From positions 4,098 through 36,097 of the forward strand of contig JBHLRO010000028.1 of the NCBI GenBank assembly GCA_048882505.1: DNA of 32,000 bases, given 5' to 3'. The position numbers were made by a program, and so were the translations under genes. Below the pieces are notes generated by a model. It was not told the DNA's origin. It was given only the letters and a program-made list of their open reading frames with translations, and did not search any database. Below are positions 11,936-16,271 of the stretch, one piece after another. The stretch's first letter is position 1; every line of letters begins with the position of its first letter. Source of the DNA: Candidatus Thorarchaeota archaeon (lineage in GTDB: Archaea; Asgardarchaeota; Heimdallarchaeia; Hodarchaeales; Hodarchaeaceae).

Positions 11936-12646
11936 TCAAGGGATCGATTCATCTAGTTTTACCAACCAATGATGGATGGGAGCCATCTTTTGGCAATGAT
12001 TAAAACATTGGTCAACCAGCTCAACTGTTTTGAGTGTAGATACGCTGATCTGCGGAGAAATAACATAAAGACCATTGTATTTCAACAAATCAGCTCGCGG
12101 GTGAGAGGAATCAAATCCTCTTGGAACCCGCTTGTAGTGACTCCCCCCAATTTTATAGTCTCCGGCTTGGTGGACAGAATCAATGGCTTCGACTAATTCG
12201 TGTCCCGTATCATCGGAAACAACTGCTTCACGAAAAGCAGCTAGATGTTGTTTGGAAAAAGCATGCATACCCAGATATAGTCCTGCTCCAGTCATGTCCA
12301 TGCCAAAAAAGATACCAGGATGTTGCATTTTCTTGCCCAGGCCTTCCCAGAAAATCACACGAAAACGGGTATTATACGGGGACTTATCCTTACTAAAACG
12401 AATATCTCTGTGAACTCGCATAATCGAACCACGTCCATTTGTTTGAGGATCATAGCGAAGACCAGAGGAGATCTTTTTGAGCCGCTCGCCTAAGGTAATT
12501 ACAAAACTTTGCCCAGGATCAAGGAGGTACTTTTGATAGTCCGCCTTACGCGCTTGAAACCATTCTCGGCTATTATTTAATTTCAGATCAGCTAAAAACT
12601 GCAACCCTTCTTCAGGAAACCCATCAAAGGTATTATTACTTGACAA
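11936..12646 (-). CDS. DUF2461 / TIGR02453 family protein
   Basis: FLADLKLNNSREWFQARK..Y, SIMRVHRDIRFSKDKSPY and YKRVPRGFD..HPRADLLKY are hallmark motifs; TTG start with GAGGT upstream. Confidence 0.9.
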   Translation of the reverse strand: MSSNNTFDGFPEEGLQFLADLKLNNSREWFQARKADYQKYLLDPGQSFVITLGERLKKISSGLRYDPQTNGRGSIMRVHRDIRFSKDKSPYNTRFRVIFWEGLGKKMQHPGIFFGMDMTGAGLYLGMHAFSKQHLAAFREAVVSDDTGHELVEAIDSVHQAGDYKIGGSHYKRVPRGFDSSHPRADLLKYNGLYVISPQISVSTLKTVELVDQCFNHCQKMAPIHHWLVKLDESIP

Positions 12647-12968
12647 TCGAATACCTCAAGATATCGAGTTGGTTTAATCAATAGGTTCCTATTTATATCC
12701 GACCAACTAAGAGAGAGATCAGTGTAACGCTATATATCTACCCTTTCTTACCAGAATTTAGAGAATTCTGTCCATTATTCGAAAATCCTGGCAAATCTGA
12801 CAGAAAAGGCCTTGAAATCCTTATCTAACTAATCATTTAACTAAGGACCAAGGATTAATTCATCTGTGTGAAAAGAACTCGAAAAGGGTTTAGCTACACG
12901 GGTCTTATCGTGGAAAGAAAAAAGCAATTTACGATTACATTCCATTTGGGACTTTCGAAACTGGTTTT

Positions 12969-13163
12969 CTAACGGATTTTTTCGTACTCTCGATACCTGT
13001 CATAACGCTCCCTTTTCCGATAGTACTTTCCCAGTTTGTGTTTTGTCAGCAGATAGGATATCGATCCAGGATTCATCCCGAACAGGGCTCCTATCAGGGC
13101 ATGGAAGGCGCTTCTGGTGACTTCTTTTTCCAATTCTCCCTTTTTCTTCTTCATTGGTTCCAC
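12969..13163 (-). CDS. Small basic hypothetical protein (copy 1 of the duplication); likely start ATG 13154
   Basis: MKKKKGELEKEVTRSAFHALIGALFGMNPGSISYLLTKHKLGKYYRKRERYDRYREYEKIR; the second copy keeps the same amino-acid pattern, which supports a coding origin. Confidence 0.45.
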   Translation of the reverse strand: MEPMKKKKGELEKEVTRSAFHALIGALFGMNPGSISYLLTKHKLGKYYRKRERYDRYREYEKIR

Positions 13164-13252
13164 TCTCGAGAATTGCTGCGTGAAGAGAACCTCTTCATGT
13201 CTGGCATTATCAATGATATTTCATTTAATTTGAGAGTTTTGAAACTAGTTTT

Positions 13253-13433
13253 CTAACGGATTTTTTCGTACTTTGGATACCTAATTATCGCTCCTTCTCC
13301 CCATAGCGCTTTCGCAGCTTATGTTTAGCAAGCAGATAGGATAATGACGCCGGATTCTTGAAAGATAGACCAAAAAACTCTCCGAAGGATGTACTAGCTA
13401 GTTCCTTCTCTAGTTCTCCTTTTTTTTCTTCAT
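13253..13433 (-). pseudogene. Disrupted second copy of the small basic ORF
   Basis: Reads KKGELEKELASTSFGEFFGLSFKNPASLSYLLAKHKLRKRYGEKER*. Relative to copy 1 it is 1 nt short in the A-run after the ATG (8 A), has a premature TAA, and has a further 1-nt deletion before the conserved YEKIR* tail. Confidence 0.6.
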
Positions 13434-13808
13434 TGGCTTTTGCTCTTGGCCTTTTTAGTTTAAGAGTTATTGGTTCTTTGTAACACTAGGCATAATCGGC
13501 GGCTTAAATATGCTGTCATTCCGGAATTACTCTTAAAATGCTTTTGATCGATCTTTTTTGTCTAGTAAGTCCTTTAAGTCTTTTCGTTTTCTCAAGTTCT
13601 TCTACTTCCAGTTAGGCTTCCATGAATCCATCACCTAATGCCAGCTGGTTCAGCTCTGTGAATTTTTCTCCATAGTTGCCATGCTGTTGAGATGCTCATG
13701 ACATGAAAAGGTATGGAAACTCCCTGCCTAAATTTTCTGTCTGGGACCCCCGATTCTGAAAAATGTCGGGTCATCCTTAAATTCATTGAAATTACATGAT
13801 GCCATGGA

Positions 13809-16271
13809 ATGACACAGGCACTAGTTGAAAGGTTGAATGCAAGAACGATTGAAGGGGATCTGTATCGTTTAATACCTGAGAAACCTGAATTCGTTCAATG
13901 TTATGCGTGTGCTCATTACTGTAAAATTAGGAACAATCGTTCTGGCATATGTAAAATCAGATTCAATGACAATGGGGTCCTGAGAGTTCCGTATGGCTAT
14001 GTGGGCGCATGGCAGTGTGATCCGATTGAAAAAAAACCCTTTTTTCACGCGTTTCCTGGAACCCATGCCATGTCCTTTGGAATGCTGGGATGCGATTATC
14101 ACTGTGGGTATTGTTTTACAGATGATACTGTTGTCATAACTGATAAAGGCCCTGAAACATTTAAACAGTTATTTAACTCTGTTGATGCTATTCAAGAAAC
14201 TCACGATGGATACATTGGTTTTAAAAACGACCTTAGAGCTATCACTTCTTCTGGTAAATTGAGAGATGTAAAGGGTATATTTAAACATAAATATAAAGGG
14301 AAGATGGTAAAAATAAATCCCCTATATTTACCAGAAATAAAGTGTACAAGTGATCATGAAATTTATGCCACCACTAACCCTAATATTAAACCAGGAAAAG
14401 TTAAAGCGAAACAATTAACAAAAAATCACCTTCTTGCAATTCCACGAAGCTATTCTTTTTCTTCGCCCCAGCTTGTTAAAGTCGATCAAGTCCTAAATCA
14501 GCATGAATTCAACTTCAATCCTAGGTGGAAATTATCTGTTGAAGAACGTAATTTTATCATGTCCGAAACTGAAAAAGGAAAATCATCTAATGAAATAGGA
14601 GAAACACTAGGGAAAAGTGGTTCATATATTCGGCATGTTAGAAGCAAAATGAGGAAGGGATTAGGCTTAGATAAAAGAAAAGGAAAAATCATCATTGAAG
14701 ATAATAAAATGAGATTTTCTAACGAACGTAGACCAGGAATCCCTGTTGAAATTCAATTTGATGTTGACACTGCGAGGTTATTTGGACTTTACTGTGCGGA
14801 AGGATGTGTTGTAACTGATGAAAGCAGACCTAATAGCTATAAAACCAATTTCACTTTTTCACATGAGGAAGAACATTTTGTAAAGGAAGTACGAAATTTA
14901 ATTACAAAAATTTTTGGCATTAGTGCAAGGAAAGTAATTAGAGAAGATACCATAGCGGTTGCGGCAGGGAAAACTTCGATTGGACTATTATTCAAATATT
15001 TAGTTGGAGTTAAAGCTCTTGAAAAGAAAGTTCCGGAGTATTTATTCGATGCTCCAAGAGAAGTGGTTGAAGCCTTTGTTAATGCATATATAGATGGTGA
15101 TGGCCATAGGTACGAAAGTAGTAAGGTTTCATCTAGTACTGTTTCAATTGATCTAGCTTATGGTATTGCTTGGCTAGTTTTAAAACTAGGATATTTACCC
15201 TCCATATATATTAATAAAATGCCAGAAAAAACAGAAATACTAGGAAGGGAAGTAAATCAAGCTGAATTTTTGTATAATGTGGTTTGGTATGAGAATTCAA
15301 ATGTTGAAAGAGAATTTCATGTTACTGATGAGTATTTTTTGATACCAATTAGATCATTGAGTCAATTTGACTTTGATGATTATGTTTACAATATGGAAGT
15401 AGAGAATGAACACAATTATCTAGCAGGATTCTTTTTGGTAGCTAATTGTCAAAATTGGCTTACGTCTCAAGCTCTAAAGGATCCCCGAGCGAGCGCCAGA
15501 TCGACGGTTAATGATATCACCCCACAGGAGTTTGTAAACAAAGCCCTGGATCTTGATGCGAGAGTGGTAACATCTACGTATAATGAACCGCTGATTACGT
15601 CTGAGTGGGCTGTAGCAATCTTCAAAGTGGCACGGGAAAAGGGACTAGCGACTTCGTACGTATCTAACGGGAATGCCACCCCCGAAGTTTTAGACTATCT
15701 AAAACCCTATTTGGATCTATATAAAATTGATCTGAAGACGTTTCAAGATAAGAACTATCGAAAGTTAGGGGGAACGTTAGAAGCGGTTCTTAAAGGGATC
15801 AAAGGTGTCTTTGAGAGAGGAATGTGGTTAGAAATAGTTACATTAATTGTCCCGTCTTTTAATGACTCTGATGAGGAACTACAACAAATCGCGGAATTCA
15901 TTGCAAACATTTCCCCTGATATCCCGTGGCATGTGACCGCATTTCATAAAGATTATAAAATGACAGATCCAGACAACACTTCTGTCGAAACTTTAGTTCG
16001 TGCTGCAAAAATTGGCGAAAAGACTGGATTAAATTATGTATATGCAGGCAATTTGCCTGGTCAAGTGGGTAAGTTTTCTCATACACGATGTCCTCAATGT
16101 GAGCATACGTTAATTGCGAGACACGGTTTTGAAATCACCGACTTCGCATTAAACGTGAATTATGAAGAAAAAAAGGGATATTGTCCTAAATGTGGAGAAC
16201 AAATTCCAGGGAGATGGGAAGAACCTCCAGAAAGAAACTCACGGCTTCATTTTAGTCGATTTCTCAGTTGA
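13809..16271 (+). CDS. amrS: AmmeMemoRadiSam system radical SAM enzyme, intein-containing precursor (820 aa; about 375 aa after splicing)
   Basis: VQCYACAHYCKI...GICKIR, DPIEKKPFFHAFPG...SFGMLGCDYHCGY|intein|CQNWLTSQ, TYNEPLITSEW, YVSNGNATPE, DLKTF, WLEIVTLIVP, IPWHVTAFHKDYKM, YVYAGNLPG and a C-terminal CPQC...CPKCG match this family. Confidence 0.92.
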   Translation: MTQALVERLNARTIEGDLYRLIPEKPEFVQCYACAHYCKIRNNRSGICKIRFNDNGVLRVPYGYVGAWQCDPIEKKPFFHAFPGTHAMSFGMLGCDYHCGYCFTDDTVVITDKGPETFKQLFNSVDAIQETHDGYIGFKNDLRAITSSGKLRDVKGIFKHKYKGKMVKINPLYLPEIKCTSDHEIYATTNPNIKPGKVKAKQLTKNHLLAIPRSYSFSSPQLVKVDQVLNQHEFNFNPRWKLSVEERNFIMSETEKGKSSNEIGETLGKSGSYIRHVRSKMRKGLGLDKRKGKIIIEDNKMRFSNERRPGIPVEIQFDVDTARLFGLYCAEGCVVTDESRPNSYKTNFTFSHEEEHFVKEVRNLITKIFGISARKVIREDTIAVAAGKTSIGLLFKYLVGVKALEKKVPEYLFDAPREVVEAFVNAYIDGDGHRYESSKVSSSTVSIDLAYGIAWLVLKLGYLPSIYINKMPEKTEILGREVNQAEFLYNVVWYENSNVEREFHVTDEYFLIPIRSLSQFDFDDYVYNMEVENEHNYLAGFFLVANCQNWLTSQALKDPRASARSTVNDITPQEFVNKALDLDARVVTSTYNEPLITSEWAVAIFKVAREKGLATSYVSNGNATPEVLDYLKPYLDLYKIDLKTFQDKNYRKLGGTLEAVLKGIKGVFERGMWLEIVTLIVPSFNDSDEELQQIAEFIANISPDIPWHVTAFHKDYKMTDPDNTSVETLVRAAKIGEKTGLNYVYAGNLPGQVGKFSHTRCPQCEHTLIARHGFEITDFALNVNYEEKKGYCPKCGEQIPGRWEEPPERNSRLHFSRFLS
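14112..15446 (+). mobile_element. Intein (445 aa) with LAGLIDADG homing endonuclease and an internal HTH-like segment
   Basis: Starts CFTDDTVVIT (block A), has CTSDHEIY (block B TxxH), LFGLYCAEG and AYIDGDG (LAGLIDADG blocks C and E), VYNMEVENEHNY (block F), and ends LVAN followed by Cys+1. Removing it restores CDYHCGYC (CxxxCxxC). Confidence 0.95.

Follow-up and report, generated by a model that had tools for sequence, protein, structure and literature searches.

Does an intein that interrupts a radical S-adenosylmethionine (SAM) enzyme at a ligand of its iron–sulfur (Fe-S) cluster owe its position to selected control of splicing, or to the habits of a selfish element? The question is raised by an amrS gene within a 32,000-nt stretch of DNA (hereafter the window) from the Asgard archaeon Candidatus Thorarchaeota archaeon (assembly GCA_048882505.1, contig JBHLRO010000028.1, positions 4,098 to 36,097). 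Direct reading and profile matches agree that, at the sequence level, the [4Fe-4S] motif CxxxCxxC of this gene is interrupted by an intein inserted immediately in front of its third cysteine, exactly where an earlier note on this DNA had placed it; that note went on to propose a redox- or Fe-S-gated splicing switch. We conclude that the element is very probably a mobile intein of class 1, able to splice and equipped with a LAGLIDADG homing endonuclease of its own, lodged in an amrS paralog of an Asgard archaeon. Selfish homing alone explains the site, and redox sensitivity is not required to account for the arrangement.

The amrS open reading frame (ORF; 13809..16271, plus strand, as are all features of the gene given below) was read directly and is open over 2463 nt, encoding 820 aa. 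Its product matches the AmmeMemoRadiSam-type model TIGR04337 with 255.7 bits (cut-off 220) in two stretches that flank the insert, which upholds the host assignment made earlier from the letters alone. The N-extein (13809..14111; 101 aa) matches TIGR04337 profile positions 11-88 and comprises a Cys-rich stretch at its N-terminus and the first two of the three cysteines that bind the cluster. The first motif Cys is encoded by TGC (14091-14093), followed by GAT TAT CAC; the second, Cys(-3), is encoded by TGT (14103-14105), followed by GGG; and the N-extein ends at Tyr(-1) (TAT, 14109-14111). Intein Cys1 comes next (TGT, 14112-14114). At the C-terminal splice junction (15444..15449), also read directly, Asn445 (AAT, 15444-15446) abuts Cys+1 (TGT, 15447-15449), after which the gene continues CAA AAT TGG (QNW). 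The C-extein (15447..16271; 274 aa plus stop) contains the radical SAM core (PF04055, 55.3 bits; precursor residues 552-698) and a C-terminal CxxC...CxxC ribbon, and this piece alone scores 194.9 bits against TIGR04337. Cys(-3), Cys1 and Cys+1 are therefore as previously named, with 14091-15449 running from the codon of the first motif Cys to that of Cys+1. At the site, the precursor reads CDYHCGYC followed by FTDD..., and the predicted spliced product reads CDYHCGYC followed by QNW...; once spliced, CDYHCGY plus C would satisfy the CxxxCxxC requirement of TIGR04337, and Cys+1 is, by its place in this sequence, the third cluster ligand of the spliced enzyme. It is true, as had been remarked, that both precursor and product carry CxxxCxxC, but nothing special follows from it: given Cys1/Cys+1 chemistry, mimicry of the motif in the precursor is automatic for a Cys1 intein that precedes Cys+1.

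The intein itself (14112..15446; 445 aa) has the Cys1...Ala-Asn organization of class 1 and ends in ...GFFLVAN, its block F/G end reading ...VYNMEVENEHNYLAGFFLVAN. Four profiles match above their cut-offs: Intein_splicing PF14890 (46.4 bits, cut-off 35.8), LAGLIDADG_3 PF14528 (45.8 bits, cut-off 22.5), intein_Nterm TIGR01445 (34.8 bits, cut-off 24.5) and TIGR01443 (16.4 bits, cut-off 15.6). The first three of these scores, like that of the host against TIGR04337, far exceed what chance would give. The layout is that of a HINT splicing domain, an inserted helix-turn-helix (HTH) region and a LAGLIDADG homing endonuclease. Direct reading and alignment place block B (T-S-D-H, TxxH; 14346..14357) with T79 and H82 in intein numbering, LAGLIDADG motif 1 (LFGLYCAEG; 14778..14804) with catalytic Glu E230, and motif 2 (AYIDGDG; 15084..15104) with catalytic Asp D330. 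In an alignment of 177 full-length relatives, C1, T79, H82, E230, D330 and N445 are each at least 95% conserved, as are G225, Y227, C228, A229, E230 and G231 of motif 1 and G329, D330 and G331 of motif 2. The penultimate residue is Ala444, in place of the His that is usual, though not obligatory, in class-1 inteins; among the 177 relatives a residue other than His is the majority state (S 122, H 27, A 13, K 13). An additional cysteine, Cys78 (14343-14345), lies just ahead of the block B Thr (C-T-x-x-H) and is 89% conserved among these relatives, placing an extra thiol near the active site.

Apart from that non-obligatory His, every feature of a class-1 intein and of a LAGLIDADG endonuclease that was checked is present in the sequence. 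For the intein, these are the nucleophiles Cys1 and Cys+1, the TxxH motif, the C-terminal Asn, profile scores above cut-off and intein-free homologs that equal the spliced sequence; for the endonuclease, they are two motifs, each with its catalytic acidic residue, and cleavage itself is predicted. The HTH segment (14529..14624) lies between the HINT N-part and the endonuclease and is probably a DNA-recognition region. Its match to HTH_38 PF13936 scores 18.4 bits, below the cut-off of 27; a match to the same family is precomputed for some relatives too, and the AlphaFold2 model gives three helices at precursor residues 244-282. Searches against PDB sequences relate the endonuclease part to PI-PkoII (the best match, E 6e-19) and to archaeal VMA inteins, and the splicing part to the MJ0781 (KlbA) intein. 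The AlphaFold2 model of the whole 820-aa precursor, built from a 43-homolog alignment, has a mean predicted local distance difference test score (pLDDT) of 85.2, with values mostly of 85-97 across the intein (residues 102-546) and low-confidence segments near the junctions at residues 95-98 (the CDYH loop) and 549-565 (just past Cys+1).

An intein-free form of the gene is preserved in a sister species. Orthologs of the window's amrS occur in five of 40 relatives, and all five are intein-free. The closest belongs to a species of the same genus (G016), with 80% identity over the C-extein and an N-extein of the same length that is 76% identical at the DNA level. Across the site, the G016 gene reads GMLGCDYHCGYCQNWLTSQALKDP, which is exactly N-extein plus C-extein; around the site, 74 of 90 nt are identical to the window, and the junction is identical at the protein level. 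Likewise, 76 empty alleles in other genomes match the predicted spliced sequence. Among these 76 alleles, the 48 bp that surround the site hardly vary at first and second codon positions, making this the kind of target that a LAGLIDADG enzyme needs. The G016 locus is syntenic with the window, with the same neighbour genes on both sides of amrS and tblastx segments up to 86% identical.

One difference between the two loci lies upstream of amrS, where the window carries about 1.85 kb (11936-13808) that is additional to the G016 locus. It consists of a DUF2461 gene (11936-12646, minus strand) and a further 1.16 kb (12647-13808) that is strongly T-rich on the plus strand and contains no ORF of at least 100 aa; Rfam and tRNA scans of the window, including 12647-13808, gave no matches.

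The same insertion point is occupied in a large number of other proteins, and the arrangement is not unusual: hundreds of amrS homologs have the site filled, as do members of other radical SAM families. A search with the C-extein as query, restricted to protein lengths of 451-1435 aa, gave 1027 matches, and an intein is present at this site in 119 of the 120 top-ranking ones. Both junctions fall at the exact position (GC-x-x-HC-x-Y↓C-F/L...; ...N↓CQNW, with arrows marking splice junctions) in 109 of these 120, while a further 10 are N-terminally truncated but retain the C-junction and one is intein-free. The survey of amrS homologs suggested earlier thus returns both inteins at the site and intein-free alleles such as that of G016. 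The parsed homologs comprise 171 full-length inteins (~445 aa) and 46 mini-inteins (~158 aa), and the sources, where named, are Blastocatellia, Pyrinomonadaceae, Vicinamibacteria, Chloroflexota, Anaerolineae and Handelsmanbacteria. With the intein alone as query there were 375 matches, the best 120 of which all lie in amrS-like hosts of ~800 aa.

An exhaustive HMMER search of 1.84 billion cluster representatives (4804 matches at E <= 0.001) extends the site beyond these hosts. Judged by the flanks of the matches, CxxxCxx↓C is also the insertion point of related inteins (30-40% identity) in further radical SAM proteins, including canonical AmrS (P0259, whose C-extein alone scores 437.6 bits), divergent proteins resembling pyruvate formate-lyase (PFL) activase, and an HpnJ-like B12-binding radical SAM protein (P0321). 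In four other Asgard genomes, out of 400, different paralogs hold inteins of 34-35% identity at this motif position. By these sequence comparisons, the third radical SAM motif Cys is a widely used landing site of one homing-intein family, in several radical SAM subfamilies and in both prokaryotic domains. Two proteins, P0262 (946 aa) and P0285 (a fragment), contain two inteins three residues apart within one radical SAM motif (GCNWL↓C-HPAG...VVHN↓CRY↓C-FLPG...VAN↓CQNF), the second motif Cys being preceded by a mini-intein and the third by a full-length one of the LAGLIDADG type.

Turning to evolutionary history, a tree of exteins was built from 130 rows, each scored as full, mini or empty. The window and G016 are sisters, with a Shimodaira–Hasegawa-like approximate likelihood ratio test (SH-aLRT) value of 100, and the pair adjoins bacterial clades; the four remaining Asgard orthologs lie elsewhere. 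The three states require at least 25 changes on this tree, with 9-13 per state forced by well-supported branches, and the state varies even between near-identical exteins, as with L021 (full), L059 (empty) and P0039 (mini). Read from these sequences, such patchy occupancy is the pattern of the homing cycle of a selfish element and not that of a retained regulator. In the intein tree, the window's intein pairs with that of P0002 (SH-aLRT 100; 65% identical), and the pair is nested among bacterial amrS inteins. P0002 comes from a 5.7-kb metagenome contig of 30.6% G+C (GC) whose neighbour gene is archaeal NreA. Overall, most members of the amrS clade, and likewise of the intein family, are bacterial, from Acidobacteriota and Chloroflexota. 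A further member of the extein tree, L050 (JAIWHF010000019.1; coverage 0.42), is labelled as a Methanosarcinales archaeon and has an amrS almost identical to those of two Anaerolineales metagenome-assembled genomes (branch lengths 0.018-0.067, SH-aLRT 100), a placement that suggests binning error or very recent transfer.

The intein also differs from its host gene in composition, with 33.0% GC and 21.6% GC at third codon positions (GC3), against 41.5-42.9% GC and 34.7-38.6% GC3 in the two exteins. Coding windows of the genome (n=1047) average 41.9% GC (sd 3.0) and 38.1% GC3 (sd 4.3); only 0.3% of them are as low as the intein in GC, and none in GC3. Intein GC3 is lower than extein GC3 at 10 of the 11 loci of this intein family examined, which makes the AT shift a family trait and not a clock.

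We propose the following course for the window's gene. It would be translated as an 820-aa precursor that is not expected to work as a radical SAM enzyme, because 445 residues lie between its ligands Cys2 and Cys3. Splicing would follow the canonical four-step class-1 route: Cys1 would perform an N-S acyl shift, aided by the Thr and His of block B, the N-extein would pass to Cys+1, and the terminal Asn would cyclise. The products would be a 375-aa enzyme with the native CDYHCGYCQNW and a free endonuclease, which would cut empty alleles at the very conserved DNA site and so allow the intein to be copied in. The choice of site would follow from what a selfish intein needs, namely a nucleophile (Cys) at +1 and a DNA target that the host cannot change. 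Near-invariant motif codons supply targets conserved across species and would make imprecise loss lethal to the gene.

Several points weigh against this reading. Splicing and endonuclease activity are deduced from sequence only. Ala in place of the penultimate His, a minority state (13/177), may slow Asn cyclisation. On the extein tree, a gain in the window's lineage and a precise loss in G016 are indistinguishable, and a sliding window of DNA identity against the G016 allele reveals no visible co-conversion tract next to the junction. The AT shift was considered as stand-alone proof of recent transfer and rejected, since it is shared by 10 of 11 loci. Finally, the persistence of many endonuclease-less mini-inteins (46/217) is also compatible with some retained benefit.

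Such a benefit could be conditional splicing, the alternative closest to the earlier proposal: a Cys(-3)-Cys1 disulfide (C-G-Y-C) formed under oxidising conditions, or a metal or Fe-S cluster bound by the splice-site cysteines, would block the first step, so that maturation of the oxygen-sensitive enzyme would await a reduced or Fe-S-replete cell, a form of regulation that would have been selected. The CxxC spacing of Cys(-3) and Cys1 is indeed present (14103-14114), endonuclease-less mini-inteins are kept at the site in many lineages, and the two low-confidence segments of the AlphaFold2 model may be flexible and able to rearrange. The precedent invoked earlier is sound: in the MoaA intein of Pyrococcus abyssi (Pab), splicing is blocked by a native disulfide between Cys(-3) and Cys1 and proceeds only after its reduction (reviewed in PMC3922620 and PMC10663303), and in the Pab PolII intein a disulfide links Cys1 and Cys+1 (PMC3922620). 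By analogy, oxidation-sensitive splicing through a Cys(-3)-Cys1 or a Cys1-Cys+1 disulfide is chemically plausible here, and with the same C-x-x-C spacing as the precedent, oxidative trapping in vitro would not surprise. Yet no sequence feature is specific to such a switch. The host enzyme itself dictates Cys(-7), Cys(-3) and Cys+1, with or without an intein, and Cys1 is the commonest intein nucleophile. Adaptation of the extein to the intein was examined and rejected: 223 occupied and 77 empty alleles share their residue sets at positions -6 to -1 and +2 to +6, with Gly(-2) commoner among the occupied ones in samples that are not independent. Occupancy is patchy, with near-identical exteins full, mini or empty; the sister species G016 does without the intein; and the genome also has an intein-free amrS paralog. 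With three extein cysteines fixed by the enzyme, flanks alike and the sister intein-free, sequence cannot separate a selected switch from a by-product, and we regard selected conditional splicing as unlikely. A more elaborate version, in which the precursor fold places Cys+1 beside Cys1 and Cys-7, Cys-3, Cys1 and Cys+1 gather to bind Fe-S or a metal, masking both nucleophiles and coupling maturation to redox state or Fe-S supply throughout the family of third-Cys inteins, appears more doubtful still.

Two further alternatives concern the state of the gene and the integrity of the assembly. A decayed intein that no longer splices would leave the gene effectively dead, with its function covered by the second amrS paralog, which lies intein-free on contig C30 (37% identity). 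The penultimate Ala could be read in this way, the paralog scores higher against TIGR04337 (353.8 bits), and neither amrS copy (C28, C30) is linked to the AMMECR1 (contig C11) or Memo (C4) genes of this genome. Against decay, the 820-codon frame is intact; Cys1, T79/H82, Asn445, Cys+1 and both LAGLIDADG acidic residues are present; a non-His penultimate residue is the majority state of the family; and the exteins are 76-80% identical to the G016 ortholog with no frame damage, so that we hold decay to be very unlikely. Least probable of all, and scarcely credible to us, is bacterial contamination or a chimeric assembly in an archaeal bin that would make the intein gene truly bacterial. The mostly bacterial membership of the amrS clade and intein family would fit it, as would the contamination estimate of 3.7% for this 4.3-Mb genome (94.5% complete). 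The genes on both sides of amrS are nevertheless syntenic with same-genus G016, which holds an ortholog of amrS itself. Moreover, a single 8.3-kb contig in the probable source run spans the whole stretch examined, and the occupied allele also appears in contigs of a second, independent study, one of which bridges the N-junction with 1 mismatch in 1490 nt.

The same read sets bear on strain variation. In four runs, no contig joins across the intein as an empty allele would, a result uninformative on absence because contigs drop rare variants. No RNA data set is listed among the runs that contain the locus. Run X3 yields variant-strain contigs over window positions 13725-16245 with the intein at the same place, the extein pieces ~2-5% and the intein pieces ~0-3% divergent, roughly 4% against 1-2%. 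That difference may be a sign that the intein spread recently from strain to strain, although the contigs are shallow (3-5x) and may combine strains, and the observation was not used as evidence. The genome encodes full-length actin (440 bits) and archaeal ribosomal protein L19e, consistent with an Asgard archaeon. Within it, the window's intein is the only one detected by PF14890 and TIGR01445. The only other LAGLIDADG match is a free-standing endonuclease (G000:C2, ~361.7-363.2 kb; L108:1458-2999, minus strand; PF03161, 54.4 bits) that has N-terminal HTH domains and is without an intein splicing domain.

Compared with known systems, the window's element belongs to a familiar kind. LAGLIDADG inteins pass through a homing cycle of invasion, fixation, endonuclease decay and loss, as exemplified by Sce VMA1 / PI-SceI. 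The present family resembles that case in the intermixing of full, mini and empty alleles among close relatives and in its highly conserved target; unlike it, the evidence for the window's intein is comparative only. The nearest curated case is tetraether lipid synthase (Tes), a radical SAM enzyme for which NCBIfam provides a model of the intein-containing form (NF045703, an 'exception' model). The window's protein matches NF045703 over one collinear stretch that starts at residue 95 (first Cys of the motif), takes in the intein and ends at residue 613, which points to the same or a very near insertion point in Tes, as judged from the model; the score of 48 bits, far under the cut-off of 1700, indicates that the host enzyme differs from Tes. 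The window's intein is allelic to the amrS inteins of uncultured Acidobacteriota and Chloroflexota, whose hosts NCBI/JGI records annotate either as 'pyruvate formate lyase activating enzyme' or as 'radical SAM protein'. Insertion point (GC-x-HC-x-Y↓C...N↓CQNW) and architecture, down to the HTH segment, are common to all of them, with inteins ~50% and exteins ~60% identical to those of the window. The window's intein differs from them in its Asgard host, in grouping only with the archaeal metagenome copy P0002 and in its penultimate Ala.

The nearest studied case is the Pab MoaA intein, which probably sits at the same motif cysteine. With the genome's own MoaA (L097) as query, none of the best 120 longer proteins was a MoaA with an intein domain, and almost all were eukaryotic MOCS1-type MoaA-MoaC fusions. 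That MoaA (L097:1501-2484; G000:C1:118223-119206) is itself intein-free, with the motif CNLRCSYC, and shares 40-45% identity, along almost its entire length, with the MoaA portion of the MOCS1 fusions. Like the window's intein, the Pab MoaA intein is of class 1 and combines an oxygen-sensitive radical SAM host with Cys(-3) and a catalytic Cys1 (Callahan et al. 2011, per PMC3922620 and PMC10663303); the hosts differ, MoaA against an AmmeMemoRadiSam-type enzyme, and the window's intein is known from its sequence. The earlier note knew of no characterised intein in the AmmeMemoRadiSam family, which agrees with the open literature searched, in which no paper joined 'intein' with 'AmmeMemoRadiSam' or 'formate lyase activating', and the papers naming AmmeMemoRadiSam did so in single passing mentions within other subjects.

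The kind of element, its insertion site and the idea of redox control are thus not new, whereas the Asgard host for an element with mostly bacterial relatives and the clean pair of occupied and empty species are. The third-Cys landing site in AmmeMemoRadiSam-type enzymes is not described in the open literature searched. The syntenic locus is naturally occupied in the window and empty in its sister species, a pairing directly usable in assays of splicing and of the homing endonuclease. Should splicing prove unconditional, the intein is simply one more selfish element in a conserved site. If the four cysteines do gather around a cluster or metal, the property would be general to a large intein family that targets the third radical SAM Cys. 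The hundreds of natural variants with an obligatory Cys(-3)-x-x-Cys1 beside Cys+1 offer a good test bed for asking whether splicing is generally under redox or metal control, of which P. abyssi MoaA is the one demonstrated case.

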